Shown here: positions 250 to 18,430 of the stretch, piece by piece
Layout: every line of letters starts with the position of its first letter
How positions within the stretch are numbered: position 1 is the first letter of the stretch
Assembly (NCBI RefSeq): GCF_008000775.2
Contig: NZ_CP042905.2
Coordinates: forward strand, 2,400,001-2,432,000
Source: Promethearchaeum syntrophicum
Lineage (GTDB): Archaea > Asgardarchaeota > Lokiarchaeia > Sigyniarchaeales > Promethearchaeaceae
Length of the DNA stretch: 32,000 nucleotides
Reading direction: 5' to 3'
Position numbers and translations under genes: made by a program
The notes under the pieces: model-generated
The model's input: the letters and a program-made list of their open reading frames with translations, nothing else
Told to the model about the DNA's origin: nothing
Databases searched by the model: none

Positions 250-2040
250 TTAAGAAGATTGATCTCTTTTTCTTCTTTGCGAAACATAAAAGCGCGCTGC
301 TTTATTTATATCATCATCATTTAAGCTTTTCTTGTTTAATCTGATTCTTAGTTGCTCAACAAATTTTCGACATAAAGTAATCGAAAGAGATTCGCCTAAA
401 TTCCTGATTTCTTCCCCGAGTTTTTCCGCTTCAATTGAAATTGGAGTAATTTCCACTTTAGGTTGCAAAATGAAATCTCCTAACGGATTTTTCTCCACTT
501 TACTTGAAACTGGCTTAATTTTTCTGATTTCCGCTTTGGTTTGAGCGCGTACACCTTTACTAATTAAGGGAGACCGTTCTAGCGTAAGTTTTTTCTCTCT
601 TGTTTGACCAGATTTGTAATTTGATAAAGAACTTTCTAAAAATTTCTCTTTCATTTCAATCCGAGAAGAATCAGAGGTTCCATTCAATCTATCTATGTTA
701 ATTGGTGCGATTTTATGTGTTTTTATTTCAAAATCTTTAATTGGCGCCCCAGGAGGCATTTCTTTAATTGAATTATCTTTCTTGGTTATCAAATCACTAA
801 AAAATGGATTTTTTTGATCCAATTTAGAAAATGTGGGGTCATTTTTTCTTTTAATCGAATCAAGGTTAGAAACGGGCAATTTTTTAATCTTTGGGACCCC
901 AATTTTATCTCCAGGTAATTGATTTACCCCTCTAAAATCTTTAAATTGGACTTTTTCAGGAGCTTTAAACATATCCTTTTCCAATTTTTTCTTATCTAAT
1001 TGTAATTGCAATTTTTCTTCTAATTCTTTAATTTTATTTTGAAATACTTCTAAATATGCAAATTCTTGATAAATTTCACAAATTCCTATCAATTCTCTTA
1101 GAAGTTCTATCCCTTCTGTATATTTTTCTTCTGCTACAAAATTATTCGCTTCTATAAGTTTTTTTCTAAATTCTTGGGGAAGGGATTCCTTTAAACCAAG
1201 TATTTTGGTAAAAATCATTGATAAATTTCCTAAAACATTTTGATCAATAAGATTTATATCAAAAATTTCTACATCCTTTAAATAAACATGCCTTTCCTTT
1301 AAAGCAGAAGAAGATACGAAATTTTGATTATCAGCATGGGTTAGTATAATCGCCCAATTACTATATTTTCCTTCTCTTCGCTTTAAATTGATGAAAAATT
1401 TGATTTTTTCATCATTAAAATTTGAACCATCAATAATAAAAAATATTACATCAGATCCTCTCGTAAAATTATTCCAAAGAGGGGAAAAATCATCTCTTGC
1501 TATGAAATCCCAGAGATCAAAGAAAATATTGCCCATCTTAATCTTGTAATAAAAAGCAAAATCCATAATTTTATGACCATGAGATTTATCTTCTTGATTC
1601 AATATATTTACAATCGTAGATTTACCAGATCCTACTGGTCCAATCATGGTTATTTTAGGATGTAGGTAATAATGAGTTTCTTTTATGAAAATCGTGAATT
1701 CCTCTTTTTCTGGGGAAATTTCTTTAATTTTCTTTGGGTCTGGGAAATTTTTAAGAAATAATTTTGAAGCTCTCTCCACTTCTTTGGCAATTAATTTAGG
1801 TCTATCAGCCATATCTGTTACAAATAAAAAGAAAACGCCATTAGCGTAAACGAAATGCGTTTGGAAATCAAGTAAAGATTTGTTAAGAATTTTTCCTTCA
1901 ACTGGATTCGTAATATAGGATAGAAGTCTCTTTTTTAGTACTATTTCCAAAGCTTCCTTATCAAAAGCTTTAGCGAAGAAATATTGGAATACAATTTCAT
2001 TATCATAATATATAAAGACTTGTCTTAACATTTTTATCAT
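250..2040 (-). CDS. Longin-like N-terminal domain fused to an Arf-family-like small GTPase domain with degenerate G3/G4 motifs, then coiled-coil and a Lys/Pro-rich tail
   Basis: P-loop GPVGSGKST is present. 'FDLWDFIARDDFSPLWNNFTRGSDVIFFIIDGSN' lines up with the Arf interswitch/switch II signature (f.vWDvGGQ..iRplW....glIfVvDs.D). 'LTHAD' sits at the NKxD position. The first ~125 aa (VFIYYDNEIVFQYFF...GVFFLFVTDMADR...ASKLFLKNF) show a beta-beta-alpha-beta-beta-beta-alpha-alpha hydrophobic pattern as in longin/SRX/sigma-adaptin folds (inference). The ATG at 2040 overlaps the upstream gene's TGA by 1 nt; the track start at 2043 is a TTG. Confidence 0.75.
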   Translation of the reverse strand: MIKMLRQVFIYYDNEIVFQYFFAKAFDKEALEIVLKKRLLSYITNPVEGKILNKSLLDFQTHFVYANGVFFLFVTDMADRPKLIAKEVERASKLFLKNFPDPKKIKEISPEKEEFTIFIKETHYYLHPKITMIGPVGSGKSTIVNILNQEDKSHGHKIMDFAFYYKIKMGNIFFDLWDFIARDDFSPLWNNFTRGSDVIFFIIDGSNFNDEKIKFFINLKRREGKYSNWAIILTHADNQNFVSSSALKERHVYLKDVEIFDINLIDQNVLGNLSMIFTKILGLKESLPQEFRKKLIEANNFVAEEKYTEGIELLRELIGICEIYQEFAYLEVFQNKIKELEEKLQLQLDKKKLEKDMFKAPEKVQFKDFRGVNQLPGDKIGVPKIKKLPVSNLDSIKRKNDPTFSKLDQKNPFFSDLITKKDNSIKEMPPGAPIKDFEIKTHKIAPINIDRLNGTSDSSRIEMKEKFLESSLSNYKSGQTREKKLTLERSPLISKGVRAQTKAEIRKIKPVSSKVEKNPLGDFILQPKVEITPISIEAEKLGEEIRNLGESLSITLCRKFVEQLRIRLNKKSLNDDDINKAARFYVSQRRKRDQSS

Positions 2041-3458
2041 CAAATATGCGTTTTTTTTAACCTCGAAAGTGTTTGGCGTACGGCATCGATCCTTATGTCT
2101 TCAGCAGATATACTTTTAAGTAAATTTTCTGTTAAAGAGTATGCATCTTCAATTAAATGCATTTCTTCGAGTAGTTCGATAAGTTGTAATGAATGATCTG
2201 TGTTTAGTTGTTCAATTTCATTTTGTACTAACGCTTTTTCTAATATTTCCATTTCTTCATCAGTAACGACTATATCTTCATCAGTAAATTCTTCTTCTTC
2301 ATCAGGAATTTCTTCTTCTTCATCAGGAATTTCTCCTTCTTCATCAGAAACTTCTCTTTCTTCATCAGAAACTTCTCTTTCTTCATCAGAAACTTCTCTT
2401 TCTTCATCAGAAACTTCTCCCTCTTCTTCAGAACCTTCTTTTTTTAATACATGAATTATTTCTTTTTTAGGTTGCTCATAACCAAAAATATATTTCTGTA
2501 TTTCATCTCTAATTAAAAATTTTAAAGCTTCAGGTATATTTAATTCGTTTTTTGAAAAGGAACGAACTAATCCTTTAAATCCTTGTAAAATTGCATAGGG
2601 TTCTGTGTATTCAGAAATTCCTTGTAAAATTTCCTTTAAAAATATAACAGAATCATCATCATTTGCTCGAATAGATGAGTTAAATAATGTAATTAGACCT
2701 TGTTCTCGCAGAAATTTACTTTTGATGCTTGATACAATACTTTCTTGAGCAAATTTTATCAATTCGTTAAAATTTTGATTTGGAATTTTTTCAATTATAT
2801 CCGAAATAAATAATATTACTGTATTTTTTAATCTGTCATCATTTCTTGCTACTCCCGATGTATAATTGATTATTATATAGCGTATCCGTTCTATTCCTTC
2901 ATCGATTTTTGGAGGATCTTCAGTTAAAAGATAGAAAGTGCTTTCTAAAATCGATAATATTTTATCTTGGCTATCAATTTGGAATGGAATGTATTTAATC
3001 AATTCTGGTTGAGGTCCACCAGTAGGCTTTTTCATTTTTTTACTTCTTTTACTTTTTCCTGATTTTTTTGAAGGTTCTTTTGAGGTACTGCTTTTAGTTT
3101 TAACCAATGTTAATTCCTGAATTTGAAATTCTTGAATTGGTTGAAAAATAATTCTGGAATCTTGTTCCCAGCAAGCAAAGATTTGATTTTCAGTTAATTT
3201 TTCTCGGATTTTTTTTGGAACTGTTATACTACCACTTTTAGTAAGCTTAATTATCTCTACTGGTTGAGTTGGAAGATTTACTTTAGCAACTGGAATTTCA
3301 TTTTCTTCTTTTTTGACTTCCGATTCTGGTTTTTCTGCTGATGCTGGTTTATCCACTGTTTCTATTTTGTTTTTATTTGGTTTTTCACTTTGTATGGTCG
3401 ATGCATTTTCTTGATTTTTTTCTTTTTCTACAAAGTTATCAGCAATTTTTTCTCCCAT
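2040..3458 (-). CDS. SpoVT/AbrB-domain protein with a helical central domain and an acidic heptad-repeat region
   Basis: 472-aa ORF. 'IKLTKSGSITVPKKIREKLTENQIFACWEQDSRIIFQPI' matches the swapped-hairpin AbrB/MazE pattern (k.G.itiPk.iR..l....gd......i.l.P). It has K/E-rich disordered N-terminal and linker segments, a ~200-aa helical region, then (x-[S/P/T]-D-E-E-x-E) repeats. It is translationally coupled to the downstream GTPase gene. Confidence 0.7.
   Translation of the reverse strand: MGEKIADNFVEKEKNQENASTIQSEKPNKNKIETVDKPASAEKPESEVKKEENEIPVAKVNLPTQPVEIIKLTKSGSITVPKKIREKLTENQIFACWEQDSRIIFQPIQEFQIQELTLVKTKSSTSKEPSKKSGKSKRSKKMKKPTGGPQPELIKYIPFQIDSQDKILSILESTFYLLTEDPPKIDEGIERIRYIIINYTSGVARNDDRLKNTVILFISDIIEKIPNQNFNELIKFAQESIVSSIKSKFLREQGLITLFNSSIRANDDDSVIFLKEILQGISEYTEPYAILQGFKGLVRSFSKNELNIPEALKFLIRDEIQKYIFGYEQPKKEIIHVLKKEGSEEEGEVSDEEREVSDEEREVSDEEREVSDEEGEIPDEEEEIPDEEEEFTDEDIVVTDEEMEILEKALVQNEIEQLNTDHSLQLIELLEEMHLIEDAYSLTENLLKSISAEDIRIDAVRQTLSRLKKTHI
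2256..2436 (-). repeat. Intragenic tandem repeat, 21-bp unit, about 8.5 copies, encoding acidic heptapeptides (EEREVSD / EEEIPDE)
   Basis: 'ttcatcag' recurs at 2256, 2277, 2298, 2319, 2340, 2361, 2382 and 2403, an exact 21-nt period. The units at 2340, 2361 and 2382 are identical (ttcatcagaaacttctctttc). Confidence 0.9.
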
Positions 3459-5700: not shown

Positions 5701-6999
5701 TTGAAAATTTCAAAAGGATGTATTTTAGCAGCAGGTAAAGGAACTAGATTATTACCCTTAACTGAAACGAAACCAAAACCACTCATTCCAATTGCAGGAA
5801 AACCATTACTTCAACATTCAATAGAAATGTTTCGGGAAAACAATATTACAAAAATCCTTTTAATAGTTGGTCATTACAAGGAAAAAATTGAAGAATTTTT
5901 TGGAAATGGCGCTGATTTTGGAGTCGAAATCTCGTATATAGAACAAAAGGAATTTTTGGGAACTGCTCATGCTACCAATCTTGCAAAAAATTTTGCTGAT
6001 CAAGATCCCTTCCTTCTTTTCTACGGAGATCAGTATATGGATTCACGCATTTTTGAAAAAATACTTGATGAGTTTTCTACAAATACATATGATGGGTTAA
6101 TTTCTGCTAAATATATGGAAGATCCGGAAAAATGGGGTATCTTAAAATCAAATAAAGAAGGATTTTTAGAAAACCTTATTGAAAAACCACCTGATAATCG
6201 ATATGGAAATCTAGCAAATGCAGGGGTATACATATTTAACCAAGATATCTTTGAGGGAATTGCTAACACAGAAAAATCTCTAAGAGGAGAATATGAATTA
6301 ACAGACTCGATTCAGTATTTAGTAGACAGAAATAAAAAAATAAAGATCGTAGATATTTCCAATTATTATTGGAATGGTGTTGGATATCCTTGGCAAATTC
6401 TTGAAACGAATCATCATATTATTTCAGAAATGAATACAGATTTAATTCATAGCAGTGTGGTAGAAGAAGGATCAGTGACTATCAAAGGAATTGTCGAGAT
6501 AGGAGAAAACACATTATTAAAAGCGGGAACTTATATCGAAGGTCCCTTGATTATCGGAAAAAACTGTGTTATAGGTCCAAATGCATATCTTCGTCCTTAT
6601 TCAACCATTGGTGATAATTGCAAAATCGGCAATTCTTCAGAGATTAAGGCATCTATAATAATGAATCATACAGCAGTGCCCCATCTTTCCTATGTTGGGG
6701 ATTCTATTATTGGAGAACATGTCAATTTAGGATGCGGTACAGTTACTGCAAATGTTCGCCTTGATAAGAAAAATATCTCCATGGAACTTAAAGGTAACTT
6801 AATTGAAACCCATAAAAGGAAATTAGGCGCATTTATTGGAGATTACGCAAGTATCGGAATAAATGTTAATATAATGCCAGGAAAATGCATAGGGTCTTAT
6901 TGTGAAATAGGCAGTAATACAATAATATCGAAAAACGTTCCCGCAAATTCATTGCTATTTACAAAACCAAAACAACAACAAATCCTAAGAAAAAAATAA
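5701..6999 (+). CDS. Bifunctional sugar-1-phosphate nucleotidyltransferase / hexapeptide-repeat acetyltransferase (archaeal GlmU-like)
   Basis: The N-terminus 'ILAAGKGTRLLPLTETKPKPLIPIAGKPLL' is the nucleotidyltransferase signature. The C-terminal ~170 aa are left-handed beta-helix hexapeptide repeats (IGKNCVIGPNAYL..IGDNCKIGNSSEI...IGEHVNLGCGT). TTG start preceded by GGGGA. Confidence 0.85.
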   Translation: MKISKGCILAAGKGTRLLPLTETKPKPLIPIAGKPLLQHSIEMFRENNITKILLIVGHYKEKIEEFFGNGADFGVEISYIEQKEFLGTAHATNLAKNFADQDPFLLFYGDQYMDSRIFEKILDEFSTNTYDGLISAKYMEDPEKWGILKSNKEGFLENLIEKPPDNRYGNLANAGVYIFNQDIFEGIANTEKSLRGEYELTDSIQYLVDRNKKIKIVDISNYYWNGVGYPWQILETNHHIISEMNTDLIHSSVVEEGSVTIKGIVEIGENTLLKAGTYIEGPLIIGKNCVIGPNAYLRPYSTIGDNCKIGNSSEIKASIIMNHTAVPHLSYVGDSIIGEHVNLGCGTVTANVRLDKKNISMELKGNLIETHKRKLGAFIGDYASIGINVNIMPGKCIGSYCEIGSNTIISKNVPANSLLFTKPKQQQILRKK

Positions 7000-10536: not shown

Positions 10537-12342
10537 CTATAATTGACAATCTTCATCATCAGGGTCTAGTAATTGGTTCAAAATATTTGGGCCATCTCTG
10601 AGACCCCAAGGATCGGTAGAATATAGTAGGGGTAAAACTGGTGTGCCATCACTCCACAAACCCATACCGATCATATTTTCTCCACCACCTTGAAAGTAGG
10701 TTTTAGCATCATTCGCAACCACGGTTCCACTATTAGCATCCGCTACTAGAAAACTAGCCATGGCATCGATTCGTCGGTGATATCCGAATACCGAAAGCGT
10801 ATCAATTAAAGGATCATTTGGAAGGTAATGGGTTGCGACTAATCGGGGAAATCCGTATCGATCAGATCGAATCAAGAGGAAGGCGACCTGATCGGGATTC
10901 AGTTCGATTGAATTATCACGAGTAAAGAATCTTTCATGTTGGGCCATCCCATCGCAAGGGCTTAAAACTGTATCATCCTCATAACCTATAACATTCACCA
11001 TCGTATAATTAGGCAATATCGAGAGGTTTACATTGACAGAAGGCCATGTGGCACTAGTAGTTGGAGCTTCTAAATCAAAAATAAGCTGTTGTGAAGCCCA
11101 TCCTTCTGAAATAACTTGAGATCCGATAAAAAGAGTCATTCCTCCACCAACACTATGTCCTATAATTAAAATACGGCTAGTGTCTATCGTATAATCCGTT
11201 CCTAGCGTTTCATTAAGCTCGGACGAGGAGATAAGACTATTATTTCCTATGAGAGTATTTACTGCAGAAAACATCCCCGTCCAAGTCATATTATACTTAA
11301 TATAACTCGAAAAAGAATATGCTTCTGTATCATTTTCAACTTCAACTTTTTCTAGAATTTTAGTATAATTAAAACTCCGTGAGTATTGTACAAAAATAAC
11401 TGCCATTCCACGGGAAGCAAGAGCACGTAAGGAATAATCATATTCAACTACATCCTGTCCGCTATTTCCATGGCAATATAGTGCAATTGGGATATTTTGG
11501 GTAGAAGAAAGGGTTGCTACACTTAAGCGGGGAAGATAATAGTATATATACCATGAATTATTTTCATTGCGAGGGGTCACGAATGCAGTGATATTTTCAG
11601 GTAGATCATTTTCTACTTGAAATGTGTCTACCTCAAATGGACGATCTTGGCTACCATAACCAGAAGAAGGTTGAAGTTCAGAAGTTGGCGATAGCCCCAT
11701 TAAGGGAATCAAACTAGGAAAGATGATGATAAACCCGAGTATTACCCATACGAGATTTTTAGCCATTTTGATATAGTTTAGAGTAGGTTTATAGATGGTT
11801 AATTTAAGGGTTTCAGTTTTTTTTAATATTCTTTTAAAAAGAGGATACAGAATTATTTGAACTGTATGAAAATCGCTAAACGAAATCAAGCTTGTGCCAA
11901 TTATTATCCCGATGGAAAGAATAAAAGGTATTGAAACAAAAGCACCGTGAAAATACAGTTGGTTAATTATCAGGTAAATTATTAGTTCATAAATTAAATA
12001 TCCTATTCCAACTCCCCCCAATATTCGCAAGATATCCCAGGTGTACAATTTTTTTGCTTGTTTCTCCAGAAGATCTTTTTTGAAAATTCGATATTGATAA
12101 AAAATCAATCCAAAAATGACAATGAGGAGTAATAAAAATGTCAACCAGAATACTAACGGTGTATTAACTTGAATAACTCTTGCAAATTCCAGTGAAGAAC
12201 GCGCTTTATTAAATTCTACTCCAGTTCCCGATAGAAAACCAATCAAAAAGGGGACAAGACCTATCAGTAAGCCTAGAAGCTCGGCACTTACTAATAAAAT
12301 TTTAAGGATTTTTGAACGCTTGTATTCGATCATGTAAATCAA
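10537..12342 (-). CDS. Membrane-anchored alpha/beta-fold serine hydrolase (multi-TM N-terminal domain plus a predicted extracytoplasmic catalytic domain)
   Basis: 601 aa. About 6 hydrophobic helices lie in the first ~215 aa. The nucleophile elbow is 'IIGHSVGGG' (GxSxG), with candidate Asp in 'GYEDDTV' and His in 'VATHYLPND'. There are nine N-x-S/T sequons in the C-terminal domain (NIT, NNS, NYT, NDT, NMT, NNS, NET, NLS, NYT). Confidence 0.75.
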   Translation of the reverse strand: MIYMIEYKRSKILKILLVSAELLGLLIGLVPFLIGFLSGTGVEFNKARSSLEFARVIQVNTPLVFWLTFLLLLIVIFGLIFYQYRIFKKDLLEKQAKKLYTWDILRILGGVGIGYLIYELIIYLIINQLYFHGAFVSIPFILSIGIIIGTSLISFSDFHTVQIILYPLFKRILKKTETLKLTIYKPTLNYIKMAKNLVWVILGFIIIFPSLIPLMGLSPTSELQPSSGYGSQDRPFEVDTFQVENDLPENITAFVTPRNENNSWYIYYYLPRLSVATLSSTQNIPIALYCHGNSGQDVVEYDYSLRALASRGMAVIFVQYSRSFNYTKILEKVEVENDTEAYSFSSYIKYNMTWTGMFSAVNTLIGNNSLISSSELNETLGTDYTIDTSRILIIGHSVGGGMTLFIGSQVISEGWASQQLIFDLEAPTTSATWPSVNVNLSILPNYTMVNVIGYEDDTVLSPCDGMAQHERFFTRDNSIELNPDQVAFLLIRSDRYGFPRLVATHYLPNDPLIDTLSVFGYHRRIDAMASFLVADANSGTVVANDAKTYFQGGGENMIGMGLWSDGTPVLPLLYSTDPWGLRDGPNILNQLLDPDDEDCQL

Positions 12343-12433
12343 TTTACTCTTTGTAGAAGCTCTTAATAAATAATTTCTTTTATAATGATACAGAATTATG
12401 TTAGAATGGACTAAAAAAAGGAGTATTTCTAAT

Positions 12434-13531
12434 CTAATCGGGTAAAATTGTCAAACATTGAGCTAAACAGCGATGAACGCATGCATTACAATTGATACAT
12501 TTTATAGGATCGACCAAATCCACTTTTTTATCTGATTCATTCATTAGGTAAACATTACGGGGGCAAACATCTATACATACACCACATCCAATACAGATTT
12601 CACGGTTTATGGAAATCCTGCCATATGGATTCAGTTTGTATTCTGCAATTATGAAATTCATGGTTTTTTTCCCTTTTTTCCAATTAGCATTTCCCAATTC
12701 ACTTTTATAAATAGGGGTGAGCCCGTGGAGGTCCTCGCTTAATATAAACATAAAAAGTAGCGATAAAACTAAATTCCATATTAAAACAAATAAATCCAAC
12801 CAAATGAAGAAATAAAATAATAAAATTAAACCAATAATAAATACTTCAAATATTATCATCTTTTTACGACCAGATTTCAACTTAAGATATGGAACACTAA
12901 ACAGCGCGCCGTAATTCATGAGAGCACATAAACAAATCATATCTAAATACACAAACCAATCTAGTCTATCTATAAAAATTGCACAAATACCGTAAATAAT
13001 CGTTAATATAATAGTTAGCATAGCAAAATACATGTTTCCCATTTCTAAACGCGCTTTAATTGGAAAAATCACTTCCCTTTGGGATTTAGTTTTTTGTAAA
13101 TTGTTTTTTAAATAATCTGGAATATCTTTTGCGTAAACTGGTCCAAATTTAACATCCCAACCTGTTTTTTTTTTGATTTCTATAGGATCCAATCCACATG
13201 CACTTAACTGTGGAAGTATCAACCTTCGATGCTTTACCTTATTTCCGATATCTGATGTTTTCAAAATTGAAAGTACTGAGCTTGTTAAAAAATCATCTCC
13301 ACAAGCACCACACCAGACATTAATTCCATTGGATGGTGCAATCAAAAGCCAACAATCAGTATTTTTCAATGCTTTCATGACTCGATGCACTGTAATATTA
13401 AAATTTGATGTTAAGAAAACCGGACTATTTTCATCTGGTTGGCCAATTTTTTCTAATTTTGGTTCGACTGGAAAACCCGTCCATCTAAACAAGAACCCAC
13501 CATATAATTTTAAGGTATTTAATAAATTCAT
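12434..13531 (-). CDS. Fused HgcA-like corrinoid protein / HgcB-like 2x[4Fe-4S] ferredoxin membrane protein
   Basis: 'SPVFLTSNFNITVHRVMKAL...CWLLIAPSNGINVWCGACGDDF...HRRLILPQLSACGL...WDVKFGPVYAKDIPDYL' is collinear with the HgcA corrinoid-binding domain, including the NVWC cap-helix Cys. This is followed by about 4 TM helices and a C-terminal 'CIGCGVCIDVCP' + 'CINCNACVHRC' ferredoxin module. The ATG overlaps the upstream TGA (ATGA at 13528-13531). Confidence 0.85.
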   Translation of the reverse strand: MNLLNTLKLYGGFLFRWTGFPVEPKLEKIGQPDENSPVFLTSNFNITVHRVMKALKNTDCWLLIAPSNGINVWCGACGDDFLTSSVLSILKTSDIGNKVKHRRLILPQLSACGLDPIEIKKKTGWDVKFGPVYAKDIPDYLKNNLQKTKSQREVIFPIKARLEMGNMYFAMLTIILTIIYGICAIFIDRLDWFVYLDMICLCALMNYGALFSVPYLKLKSGRKKMIIFEVFIIGLILLFYFFIWLDLFVLIWNLVLSLLFMFILSEDLHGLTPIYKSELGNANWKKGKKTMNFIIAEYKLNPYGRISINREICIGCGVCIDVCPRNVYLMNESDKKVDLVDPIKCINCNACVHRCLAQCLTILPD

Positions 13532-14253
13532 TGTTTTTTCACTCGTATTAAACTTAAAGTCTCTAGCAAATATTTCTTTTCATCAATAATAATGAAATTA
13601 CTTTCTAGAAGGCGATGATTAATATTTTTTAAAGATTTGGTAGAAAGGTTAGTAAAGAGATACGTAAGAAATACTAAAGGCACTCTGATTGTAAAATAAA
13701 GGATTTTTTTCCACCATTTTTCCGGGATAGTTTCATCAACGATAATAAACTGGCCTTCAGCTTTTAAGACGCGATAAATTTGCTTAAAACAATAATCTTG
13801 CTCACTGCGATACATTTCGGATAATGAGAGAATGGCTATAACTTTATCAAAAGATTCATTAAGAAATTTACTATCTATTTCTACTGCAGCTAAGTGCATT
13901 GGATGCACATATTCCTGAACGTTTGCTTCATTTATATGTCGGTTAGCTACCACAAGCATTTTTTCTGATTGATCAATACCAACAACATTTACTTTTTTCA
14001 TACTTGCTGCAAGGACTGCGAAAGTTCCAGTTCCCATTCCGATATCTAAAATTTGGTCTGCAGAAGTGAGATATTTTTCAACAATCCATTTCTTAATCTT
14101 TGGTAATTTTCCTAGAGTTAGTAACTTAATACCCCTATCATATTTTTCTGCTTTTTTCTCCAGAGCTTTCATAAACACATACGACATTTTCTTTAACTCT
14201 TGACTGTGATAATTATTTTTAATGATATAAATTTTAATACGGTTTCGGAGCAA
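13528..14253 (-). CDS. Class I SAM-dependent methyltransferase (UbiE/Methyltransf_11-like) with a hydrophobic C-terminal helix
   Basis: Motif I 'ILDIGMGTGTFAV', the acidic post-I residue in 'VVGIDQSEKM', and 'LKAEGQFIIVD'. The more likely start is Met23 (ATG at 14187, MSYVFMKALEKK), which would leave an 86-bp divergent intergenic region. Confidence 0.8.
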   Translation of the reverse strand: MLRNRIKIYIIKNNYHSQELKKMSYVFMKALEKKAEKYDRGIKLLTLGKLPKIKKWIVEKYLTSADQILDIGMGTGTFAVLAASMKKVNVVGIDQSEKMLVVANRHINEANVQEYVHPMHLAAVEIDSKFLNESFDKVIAILSLSEMYRSEQDYCFKQIYRVLKAEGQFIIVDETIPEKWWKKILYFTIRVPLVFLTYLFTNLSTKSLKNINHRLLESNFIIIDEKKYLLETLSLIRVKKQ

Positions 14254-14273
14254 AAGTTCAAAGAAAAAGAAAT

Positions 14274-14885
14274 ATGAAAAAGGAAAAGAATTTTATAAGT
14301 ACCATGCTTGAAAAAAAGGCTCTTCGATTCGTAACCGGAAATCCTCATAAATATAAGGAGGTTAAAGAGGTTATTCAAAAAAATTTTCCAAATTTTGAAG
14401 TAATTCAATCAAATATTGAATTATTAGAACTCCAAGCAGATTCATTAGAAGAAGTAGCATTATTTAAAGTCAATAGCGTCAAAACTCAAGTAAAAATTCC
14501 TTATTTTATTGAGGATGCGGGATTTTTTGTGGATGATGTATGCAATGGATTTCCAGGAGTTTTTAGTTCTTATGTAATGAAAACTATTGGATATAATGGA
14601 ATATTAAAGATTTTAGGAGATGCAAAAATGCGTAAAGCTCATTTTGAAAGTGTTATTGCCTATATCGATGAAGATGAAAAAGTTTTTTTATTCAAGGGTG
14701 TTAATTATGGAAAAGTATCGATTAAAGCTCATGGGCATTCTGGATTTGGTTTTGATCCTATCTTTATCTCTGATGAAACACCTGGAAAAACATTTGCTGA
14801 GTTAAAATTGGAAGAAAAGAATGATATTTCTCATAGACGACGATCTTTAGATAAATTAATTACGTTTTTAAAAAATTATACATGA
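14274..14885 (+). CDS. Non-canonical purine NTP pyrophosphatase (RdgB/HAM1/ITPase family)
   Basis: 'FVTGNPHKYKEV', 'EDAGFFVD', 'GFPGVFSSY', 'GFGFDPIF' and 'ISHRRRSL' are family signatures. An alternative start at 14304 (MLEKKALRFVTGN) is plausible. Confidence 0.85.
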   Translation: MKKEKNFISTMLEKKALRFVTGNPHKYKEVKEVIQKNFPNFEVIQSNIELLELQADSLEEVALFKVNSVKTQVKIPYFIEDAGFFVDDVCNGFPGVFSSYVMKTIGYNGILKILGDAKMRKAHFESVIAYIDEDEKVFLFKGVNYGKVSIKAHGHSGFGFDPIFISDETPGKTFAELKLEEKNDISHRRRSLDKLITFLKNYT

Positions 14886-15781: not shown

Positions 15782-16351
15782 ATGATAATAATGAAATTTC
15801 TCCCAACAATTGATCCTTCTTTAGGAGGTATTTGGATATTTATCCTTCTATATGTAGTTATTTTAGGTTTGATTATGCTATCTGTTCCAAAGAATACCCG
15901 AATTCGATTGTATGATACATCTTCATTTAGTGGAAAACAATTGAAAATTAGCAAAGCACTGAAGATTTTTTTTTTATTTGATTTAATTTTATTAGCCCTC
16001 GTTCCAATACAGTTTGAGAGCTTTGAATTTATTGTTGGACTAGTTTTTATCATTATAGGCTTTACATTTTTCGGTGTTGCAATATACAATTTTGCTCAAA
16101 CTCCTCCCAATACTCCTGTCACTAAGGGAATATATCGCTATTCAAGAAATCCTCAAGTTTTGGGTCTAAGTTTACTCTTCATTGGAATAAATATCATAAG
16201 CAAGTCGATATTATTAATATTAATCTGTTTTTTGGGTATAATTGGTTCACATTTCCGAATATTACTTGAAGAAAAGCAATGTATTCTCCAATATGGGGAA
16301 TCGTATCAACAATATATGAAAAAAATTCCACGATATTTCTTATTCATTTAA
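15782..16351 (+). CDS. Membrane methyltransferase of the ICMT/PEMT (isoprenylcysteine carboxyl / phospholipid methyltransferase) family
   Basis: 4-5 TM helices. 'GIYRYSRNPQVLG' and 'EEKQCILQYGESYQQYMKKIPRY' match the family's C-terminal SAM-binding signature (G.Y...RhP.Y.g...EE..L...fG..Y..Y...v.r). Confidence 0.75.
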   Translation: MIIMKFLPTIDPSLGGIWIFILLYVVILGLIMLSVPKNTRIRLYDTSSFSGKQLKISKALKIFFLFDLILLALVPIQFESFEFIVGLVFIIIGFTFFGVAIYNFAQTPPNTPVTKGIYRYSRNPQVLGLSLLFIGINIISKSILLILICFLGIIGSHFRILLEEKQCILQYGESYQQYMKKIPRYFLFI

Positions 16352-17575: not shown

Positions 17576-18430
17576 TCATTTTTCATATTTCTTTGGTCTA
17601 AAATCACCTAATGGACCGTGCCATCGAAATTTTCCTATAGTTTTTTTTCCAATTTGAACTGCTTCTGCTGGACATTGGTGAATGCATCTCAGACACATAA
17701 TACACTGGTCACCAAAAACAATTTTCCTATCAATAATAGAAATATTTTGAACAGGGCAATTTTTCACACATAATTCACAGAGGGTGCAATCTTCTGATGC
17801 TTTGAATTTCTTTTTCATAAACTTAACCATAATAAGATATATCAAATGGAAAGGTGGACCGATAATTGTAGAAGCTATTTTAAATGGAGGTTTTATTGAT
17901 ATCTCTTCTAATTTTTCACCAGATGATAATTTTTCAGCAATTTCTATTATTCGGGAAGTGAACTTATCGACTTTTAGTAAATTTTTATAATCCTTTTCTA
18001 ATGCTTTTTTTACATATTTAGAATTCTTATTCAACATGGCAAGACCATCTGTTCCAGGCATGATTATACTCATAGATCCTAATAATTTATATCCGTTTTT
18101 CTTAAAAGGTTTGTAAATTTTCCTAATAGCATTACCTTCCCATAATCCCATTGTACAAAAAATAAAAACTCCTTTATTTTGAATAGGGGATAGTTTTGCG
18201 AGAAAATTTCTTACAATTACTGGAGAATTTAATTCAAAAACTGGAAATCCAAAGCAAATAATATCATATTCCATAATTTCATCGGGAGAACAATTTTCAA
18301 TAGATAGAAGTGATATGTCTATTATTGGAGAGTTAAATTTTAGTTTTTTTTTTAGATATCGTGCAATGTAATCCGTATTTCCTGTTCCACTAAAATATAG
18401 AATCAGTAATCTCATATCTTTGTTCATCAT
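17576..18430 (-). CDS. Flavodoxin-domain / 2x[4Fe-4S] ferredoxin fusion (EFR1-type)
   Basis: 'LILYFSGTGNTDYIARYL' flavodoxin-like N-terminus. The C-terminus carries 'CTLCELCVKNCP' and 'CIMCLRCIHQCP'. Confidence 0.8.
   Translation of the reverse strand: MMNKDMRLLILYFSGTGNTDYIARYLKKKLKFNSPIIDISLLSIENCSPDEIMEYDIICFGFPVFELNSPVIVRNFLAKLSPIQNKGVFIFCTMGLWEGNAIRKIYKPFKKNGYKLLGSMSIIMPGTDGLAMLNKNSKYVKKALEKDYKNLLKVDKFTSRIIEIAEKLSSGEKLEEISIKPPFKIASTIIGPPFHLIYLIMVKFMKKKFKASEDCTLCELCVKNCPVQNISIIDRKIVFGDQCIMCLRCIHQCPAEAVQIGKKTIGKFRWHGPLGDFRPKKYEK

Follow-up and report, generated by a model that had tools for sequence, protein, structure and literature searches.

The cpaM/hgcAB-like operon of Promethearchaeum syntrophicum: an S-adenosylmethionine methyltransferase encoded beside a fused corrinoid, membrane and ferredoxin protein

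In a 32,000-nucleotide stretch of the chromosome of the cultured Asgard archaeon Promethearchaeum syntrophicum (contig NZ_CP042905.2, positions 2,400,001 to 2,432,000; we call this whole stretch the window and count all coordinates from its first letter), two genes lie one behind the other on the minus strand. The upstream gene, cpaM (13528..14187), encodes a class I S-adenosylmethionine (SAM) methyltransferase of 219 amino acids with a Coq5/UbiE-like fold, and the downstream gene (12434..13531) encodes an HgcAB-like fusion protein of 365 amino acids. The start of the second is written into the stop of the first by an ATGA overlap (13528..13531, minus strand), which can be read directly in the sequence as ...aaa caA TGA at..., and which indicates that the two genes form an operon, probably with translational coupling. 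What we have, then, is the cpaM/hgcAB-like operon of P. syntrophicum, which encodes an enzyme system of three modules, with a corrinoid/membrane part and a ferredoxin beside the SAM methyltransferase. Its interest comes from two questions that are open in mercury biogeochemistry: for what reason do microbes have enzymes of the HgcAB type in the first place, and what is the role of the “fused” branch, whose members do not methylate mercury?

Neither gene is a stranger to the databases. Both proteins of the window are exact matches to P. syntrophicum entries deposited in GenBank and RefSeq, the longer one under the name “HgcAB-like fusion protein” (QEE16896.1/WP_147663822.1) and the shorter one as “corrinoid protein-associated methyltransferase CpaM” (QEE16897.1/WP_147663823.1). 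The NCBIfam families NF043039 (HgcAB_like, typed equivalog) and NF043040 (CpaM) describe exactly this pair, without an experimentally defined function, and the window proteins do not differ from those descriptions: the fusion protein scores 372.5 bits on NF043039 against a cutoff of 285, with residues 12-360 covering profile positions 6-349 of 350, and CpaM scores 240.3-240.8 bits on NF043040 against a cutoff of 180. The pairing is therefore not new. It has been curated by NCBI, both genes are already correctly named, annotation gains nothing from our work, and the very name CpaM records the association that the initial annotation of this DNA, made from the sequence alone, had proposed. What we add to the known pair is a near-universal synteny that holds when one starts from either gene, three fusion architectures and a cap-helix signature specific to the clade.

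The initial annotation had read a three-part protein whose gene starts, by an ATGA overlap, on the stop codon of a gene for a class I SAM methyltransferase, and all of this stands: the open reading frame (ORF) runs on the minus strand from 13531 to 12434, Pfam and a structural model agree on the three parts, the overlap is there, and the upstream partner has the Pfam domain, the intact GxGxG and the acidic residue (D72) of a class I enzyme. Only the start of the methyltransferase had to be moved. It had been placed at 14253, a TTG that would give a 241-residue ORF; we have rejected that codon for the ATG at 14187, which is almost certainly the true start because the NCBIfam profile does not start to match the long ORF until residue 24, because the homologues that we recovered are mostly 212-226 residues long, and because the deposited QEE16897.1 is the 219-residue form.

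The 365-residue protein begins with a corrinoid domain (13076..13474, minus strand), in which Pfam finds CdhD/PF03599 at residues 22-140, and ends with an HgcB-like 2x[4Fe-4S] ferredoxin domain (residues 290-363, at 12443..12664, minus strand), within which Pfam places 4Fe-4S dicluster domains (Fer4) at residues 305-360. An AlphaFold2 model, built on 107 homologues and free of cofactors, has a mean predicted local distance difference test score (pLDDT) of 91.3 and a predicted template modelling score (pTM) of 0.84, and its fold comprises an alpha/beta domain, then four long helices, and last a small ferredoxin fold. Assigned by DSSP on this model, with hydropathy in agreement, the four predicted transmembrane (TM) helices span residues 158-186, 192-215, 221-242 and 247-265 (together 12737..13060, minus strand); the even number, if the model is right, would leave the corrinoid domain and the ferredoxin tail facing the same side of the membrane.

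When solved structures were searched by sequence, the closest was the large subunit from a corrinoid iron–sulfur protein (CFeSP), 4djd_C, which aligned its residues 320-444 to residues 21-145 of the window protein with E=1.5e-14, and no HgcA chain was returned among the solved structures. Searched by shape against the PDB with Foldseek, the top match was the published HgcAB model 9a0b_A over 308 columns (9a0b, a computational model from 2020, is the sole HgcAB entry in that library), and after it came five CFeSP large-subunit structures that superposed on the corrinoid domain at a root-mean-square deviation of 2.3-2.8 Å over about 130 residues. The ferredoxin tail found 9a0b_B, which is HgcB, at 30% identity over 63 columns. 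With the NF043039 score, the 4djd_C match and the Foldseek matches to 9a0b_A and CFeSP all in hand, the relation of the N-terminal domain to HgcA and CFeSP that had been claimed for it is sound, and the domain identities of the protein are confirmed; from these domains, binding of a corrinoid and of iron–sulfur clusters is predicted. We also tried the protein as a CFeSP large subunit and rejected that identity: on NF003195 (AcsC/CdhE) it reaches 90.9 bits against a cutoff of 306, and only the corrinoid domain aligns, at profile positions 324-449 of 450, where a full-length match that takes in the N-terminal [4Fe-4S] and TIM-barrel domains would be expected.

Cys74, the putative cobalt ligand, sits in the cap-helix motif GINVWCGACGDDF (residues 69-81, at 13289..13327, minus strand) in the local context NVWCGACG. 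In the alignment of homologues, W73 is invariant and C74 is kept in at least 90% of the sequences, so the cap-helix cysteine is indeed retained in a divergent context, as had been said of it at the outset. Farther along the chain, two CX2CX2CX3C motifs, C313/316/319/323-P (CIGCGVC) and C345/348/351/355 (CINCNAC), supply the cluster cysteines, and all eight are invariant among the homologues. Between the membrane and ferredoxin domains, just after the fourth TM helix, we noticed one further conserved motif (residues 267-280, D267-x2-G270-x-T-P-x2-K-S277-x-L-G), of which D267 and S277 are invariant in the homologue alignment; it does not appear in the descriptions of these proteins in the literature that we examined, and we offer it as a candidate substrate or docking site.

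CpaM carries the SAM motif G50-x-G52-x-G54, with glycines invariant across 69 family members and with D72 conserved in at least 90% of them. It has conserved motifs of its own as well: an N-terminal E-x5-Y-D-x-G, an F-S-E, a D-E and an R-x-P in a hydrophobic helix. The window protein has a single cysteine and no evident metal- or metalloid-binding site. CpaM is a small family; the relatives that an exhaustive phmmer search of 1.84 billion representative sequences returned fall into 37 clusters at E<=1e-30, a number that rises to 213 when the limit is relaxed to E<=1e-10. When the CpaM domain of a fused homologue was superposed on known structures, the best was SAM-bound yeast Coq5 (4obw, TMt 0.75).

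How faithfully do the two genes keep each other's company? A pattern scan, taking one genome per species, found a relative encoded in at least 594 stretches of DNA (a scan of this kind could also match true hgcA), and the best 80 loci among these were re-annotated and characterized. They come from Asgard archaea, Bathyarchaeia, Hadarchaeota and Methanofastidiosia and, among others, from Chloroflexota, Desulfobacterota, Acidobacteriota, Aminicenantes and Spirochaetota. The initial annotation had spoken of fused genes in “a few archaea and bacteria”; their occurrence in both stands, and “few,” judged by a pattern scan that finds at least 594 stretches, does not. Of the 80 loci, 69 have a CpaM homologue upstream of the corrinoid gene and on its strand, CpaM is fused to the N terminus of the corrinoid protein in 8 more (giving chains of 590-640 residues, one of them cut by a contig end), a contig end comes too near to judge in 2, and in 1 the corrinoid gene stands without CpaM. 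Adjacent or fused, then, CpaM is present in 77 of the 78 assessable loci, and the methyltransferase is conserved beside fused hgcAB-like genes just as the original proposal required. Each of the 68 upstream neighbours of testable length matched NF043040. The ATGA-type overlap of four bases recurs in about 25 of the 80 loci, and the remaining gaps are mostly shorter than 40 nucleotides. In 68 of the 69 upstream cases CpaM is directly adjacent; in the exception, a metagenome-assembled genome (MAG) from Methanofastidiosia (L062:3656-6117), a gene for a second class I methyltransferase (209 residues, Methyltransf_11) separates cpaM from the hgcAB-like gene.

The association holds in the other direction too: when the search starts from the methyltransferase, the three most divergent relatives that it returns (33-37% identity) each have a CdhD+Fer4 gene encoding 355-380 residues directly behind them. 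No other broadly conserved neighbour was found among the 80 loci, and a set of neighbours shared by 10 loci (cluster 3) turned out to be generic ATPases of ATP-binding cassette (ABC) transporters. Over 75 pairs, the matrix of distances among the CpaM proteins correlates with that of their partners (r=0.85; Mantel 0/999), a correlation to which shared ancestry contributes.

Long N-terminal fusions account for about 17 of the best 150 phmmer relatives of CpaM. Ten of these long relatives were scanned: five are triple fusions with CpaM, corrinoid, TM and ferredoxin parts, and five (P0373, P0331, P0253, P0276 and P0304) join CpaM to an HgcA-like protein that has no ferredoxin tail. Two of the latter, P0373 and P0331, could be placed on contigs (L086:3001-4835 and L087:3001-4998), and in both a separate 2x[4Fe-4S] ferredoxin gene, encoding 80 or 116 residues, comes directly after cpaM::hgcA and carries the HgcB hallmark CMECGA or CIECGA. 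The HgcA parts of the CpaM::HgcA fusions score 179-220 bits on the model for true HgcA (cutoff 275), compared with 152 for the window protein. There are thus three layouts of the same modules: cpaM followed by hgcAB-like, as in the window; cpaM::hgcA::hgcB on one chain; and cpaM::hgcA followed by a separate ferredoxin. This pattern is typical for the parts of one enzyme. The model of a natural triple-fusion homologue reaches a pLDDT of 92.9 and a pTM of 0.90, which implies, to the extent that a model can, a defined arrangement of the domains; with an arbitrarily placed methyltransferase domain, such scores would hardly be attained. Comparative genomics, in short, strongly supports the hypothesis that CpaM and the HgcAB-like protein are functionally coupled.

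What might the coupled pair do? The reading that we favour, and think reasonably probable, is that CpaM is the SAM-side loader of the HgcAB-like corrinoid and that the methyl group then passes to an acceptor other than mercury. In the N-terminal CFeSP-type domain, Cys74 would hold the corrinoid “Cys-on,” and low-potential electrons from the 2x[4Fe-4S] domain at the C terminus would bring it to Co(I); CpaM, having bound SAM, would methylate Co(I) to methyl-Co(III); and from methyl-Co(III) the methyl group would move to an acceptor in the four-helix membrane domain or close to it. We reach this scheme by analogy, because CFeSP has a separate loader, its methyltransferase MeTr, and because HgcAB is SAM-dependent. 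The intact SAM site of CpaM and the conservation of the cap-helix cysteine and of the eight cluster cysteines are consistent with such chemistry. As for the acceptor, because of the conserved Cys-on ligand, the membrane domain and the negative tests with mercury, we speculate that the methyl group probably goes either to a metal or metalloid, as another soft electrophile, or to some molecule associated with the membrane. Our data show which domains and families these are, how the operon is built, that the two proteins occur together almost without exception and that they fuse; that methyl flows in this direction, that CpaM is the loader and that the acceptor is of this kind are things that we infer by comparison with better-known systems.

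The most obvious alternative, that this is a genuine mercury methylase, a fused HgcAB making methylmercury, has the architecture of HgcA and its cap-helix cysteine on its side, and the closest structural match is, after all, the HgcAB model 9a0b. We nevertheless consider it highly improbable, and of the tests for a true mercury methylase that we applied, the window protein passed none. It scores 151.9 bits on the HgcA family NF040863 against a cutoff of 275 and 43.9 bits on the HgcB family NF040864 against a cutoff of 99. Of the Hg-MATE high-stringency motifs, N[V/I]WC[A/S][A/G/S]GK for HgcA does not fit the NVWCGACG of the window, and the true HgcA motif is found in none of the 80 related loci, which have instead a signature of their own, NVWC[AGS][AS]xG[GDE], one residue longer; C(M/I)ECGA for HgcB is absent from the 365-residue protein, which has CINCNAC (its second cluster motif) at the homologous position and whose first motif, CIGCGVC, fails too. 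The chain ends in ...RCLAQCLTILPD and lacks the C-terminal cysteine pair of HgcB, it lacks the N-terminal extension of HgcA that contains cysteine or selenocysteine (Sec), and its model predicts four TM helices where five have been described for true HgcA. Fused HgcAB proteins form a separate clade that includes Asgard archaea (PMC10083202), and the two cultured carriers of a fused hgcAB gene put to the test, Pyrococcus furiosus and Methanococcoides methylutens, did not methylate mercury (PMC10083202), in agreement with what the initial annotation had said about fused forms.

A more serious competitor, which we regard as unlikely and yet worth keeping in mind, puts both proteins in the same pathway and has CpaM pass the methyl group of SAM straight to the final substrate or to an intermediate, leaving the HgcAB-like protein to other corrinoid work such as reductive dehalogenation, another reduction or methyl transfer from a donor that is not SAM. 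In its favour, the nearest relatives of CpaM by sequence and fold (UbiE/MenG, Coq5 and PmtA) are small-molecule and lipid methyltransferases, and true HgcAB, expressed in a heterologous host, reportedly dechlorinates CCl4 besides methylating mercury (bioRxiv 10.64898/2026.04.26.720869), so the superfamily has chemistry beyond methyl transfer. Against it, the repeated fusion of CpaM to the corrinoid protein in two architectures points to one catalytic cycle, as does the pTM of the fused form, and the CpaM of the window, with its lone cysteine, has no evident place for a metal or metalloid. It is also conceivable, and in our view very improbable, that CpaM tailors the corrinoid itself (for example, at the lower ligand) or methylates the HgcAB-like protein post-translationally. 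Class I SAM methyltransferases do act in the biosynthesis of benzimidazole lower ligands, and the tight genetic association speaks for a tailoring role; biosynthetic tailoring enzymes, however, do not as a rule share a chain with the apoprotein in which the cofactor works, and among the 80 loci no other gene of cobamide biosynthesis is conserved beside the pair. The idea that CpaM loads the corrinoid must itself face several observations that weigh against it. Purified true HgcAB takes SAM without an extra methyltransferase (PMC11588087), which is equally a point for direct methylation by CpaM; a dedicated loader is therefore not chemically required. The cap-helix stretch is coil, with lower pLDDT, in the cofactor-free model of the window protein, and it is coil again in the cofactor-free model of the triple fusion. 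NF043040 is typed only as a “hypoth_equivalog.” In the literature that we searched, we found no paper on CpaM or on its association with a corrinoid protein and no published assay of methyl transfer by CpaM from SAM to a corrinoid; the preprint of Haft and Gwadz treats the selenocysteine and cysteine motifs of true HgcA and HgcB and treats neither CpaM nor the fusions. Finally, there is the sole assessable locus that lacks CpaM, on a 6.6-kb contig of a Thorarchaeota MAG (L069:3783-4964), where the upstream genes are divergent; its CpaM may be elsewhere in the genome or absent.

If CpaM does load the corrinoid, one may be tempted to go farther and to ask which came first, the mercury methylase or the system described here. 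A tentative answer, which we put forward with a good deal of doubt, is that the triad of methyltransferase, corrinoid protein and ferredoxin is an ancient and widespread SAM-dependent corrinoid methyltransferase with a native acceptor other than mercury, such as a different soft metal or metalloid or a molecule bound to the membrane, and that the mercury-methylating HgcAB is derived from it, having lost the dedicated methyltransferase and taken over the use of SAM itself. The forms in which cpaM::hgcA is followed by a separate hgcB would then be evolutionary intermediates, because the ferredoxins of the two placed loci already bear C(M/I)ECGA.

The link of CpaM to these proteins, as adjacent gene, in triple fusions and in CpaM-HgcA fusions, fits the finding of 2024 that SAM, not methyl-folate, is the methyl source of purified true HgcAB, and that a methylcob(III)alamin intermediate is formed from Co(I) with cobalt-thiolate ligation by cysteine (PMC11588087). 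Together with that result, the synteny, the fusions and the cap-helix signature make the question of function directly testable, and what they offer the experimenter is a minimal set of two or three components, ready to be expressed and tried on possible acceptors. Nor need the work be confined to an Asgard archaeon, cultured though this one is. Pyrococcus furiosus is genetically tractable. It is also one of the organisms in which a fused hgcAB gene has been reported (PMC10083202).

The surroundings of the operon can be described more briefly. Upstream of cpaM, an AT-rich intergenic region of 86 bp (14188..14273) separates it from a divergently transcribed Ham1 gene, and with a TATA-like TTTATAT at 14231-14225 this region probably holds the promoter. 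At the other end, a run of seven T's lies 15-21 nucleotides past the hgcAB-like stop codon (12413..12419, minus strand). Oligo-T stretches terminate archaeal transcription, and the run is read here as the probable terminator of the two-gene operon. Two ORFs that overlap the pair, 13173-13589 on the plus strand (138 residues) and 14193-14408 on the minus strand (71 residues), were set aside as artefacts; antisense ORFs of this sort cluster across related loci because they shadow conserved genes.

Some 1.5 kb from cpaM, at 15782-16351 on the plus strand, is a gene for an integral-membrane SAM methyltransferase of the PEMT family (PF04191). Such a gene lies no more than a few kb from the pair in 8 of the 80 loci, from at least five lineages, where about one locus would be expected by chance (a rough estimate that ignores phylogeny). 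Its occurrences are L021:4501-5073, L057:4633-5202, L037:4613-5089, L006:156-791 and 6016-6885, L066:341-976, L004:12405-13085, L009:8210-8818 and L047:10494-11099, and in L021 and L057 it stands directly upstream of the pair on the same strand. The PEMT methyltransferase may be a third, facultative partner in the same pathway. At 17576-18430 (minus strand), 3.4 kb from cpaM, is a gene for a protein of 284 residues that joins a flavodoxin-like domain to a 4Fe-4S dicluster domain and, to judge by these domains, could be a low-potential electron carrier. The gene at 10537-12342, 91 nucleotides downstream of hgcAB-like and on the same minus strand, encodes a 601-residue protein with several N-terminal hydrophobic segments, a GHSVG motif resembling a nucleophile elbow and no Pfam match. 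What else the window holds looks like Asgard chromosome of the ordinary kind, with genes for ribosomal proteins, Ham1, an M24 peptidase and a protein of the arginase family. It includes at 250-2043 (minus strand) a 597-residue protein whose residues 128-250 form an Arf/Roc small-GTPase domain, one of the eukaryote-like features that are typical of Asgard genomes. No tRNA lies anywhere in the window. Apart from the PEMT gene, none of the other neighbours of the pair in the window recurs in the related loci, the ones examined including ribosomal proteins S3Ae and S15, the 601-residue membrane protein, Ham1 and the M24 peptidase.

It remains to set this system beside those that are known. On the methyltransferase side, the best relatives of CpaM in sequence and fold are the C-methyltransferases Coq5, UbiE and MenG (TIGR01934, E about 1e-16) together with bacterial PmtA, which are likewise class I SAM enzymes that work at the surface of the membrane; but CpaM falls far short of the Coq5/UbiE/MenG cutoffs (61 bits versus 158), and it goes with a corrinoid protein, whereas they go with quinone or lipid pathways. 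On the corrinoid side, CFeSP (AcsC/AcsD) has a corrinoid-binding domain homologous to that of the window protein, and in the Wood-Ljungdahl pathway it works by the logic that we have proposed here, in which a separate methyltransferase (MeTr, AcsE) loads Co(I) and an iron–sulfur cluster reactivates the corrinoid. CFeSP differs, however, in being a soluble heterodimer with TIM-barrel domains and one [4Fe-4S] cluster, and in having no cap-helix cysteine (LSVLTA or TSVLTA aligns to NVWCGA), and its MeTr is a TIM barrel that binds methyl-folate, whereas CpaM is a Rossmann-fold SAM enzyme. The SN2 transfer of a methyl group from SAM to Co(I), with a low-potential electron donor, that we suggest for CpaM is found in the reactivation of MetH and in TsrM and the class B radical-SAM enzymes, although the folds and domain organization of these enzymes are unrelated to those of the window proteins, and the window pair has no radical-SAM CX3CX2C cluster.

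Closest of all is HgcA/HgcB of the Pseudodesulfovibrio mercurii ND132 type, with which the window system shares the CFeSP-type corrinoid domain, the cap-helix cysteine as presumed cobalt ligand, the helical membrane domain that follows it and the 2x[4Fe-4S] ferredoxin partner. SAM as the source of the methyl group has been demonstrated for HgcAB and is implied by CpaM for the system of the window. The two part ways in their construction: HgcA and HgcB are two proteins, whereas here A and B are on one chain, and, unlike HgcA/HgcB, the system of P. syntrophicum encodes a dedicated SAM methyltransferase upstream, which some of its homologues have fused to the rest.

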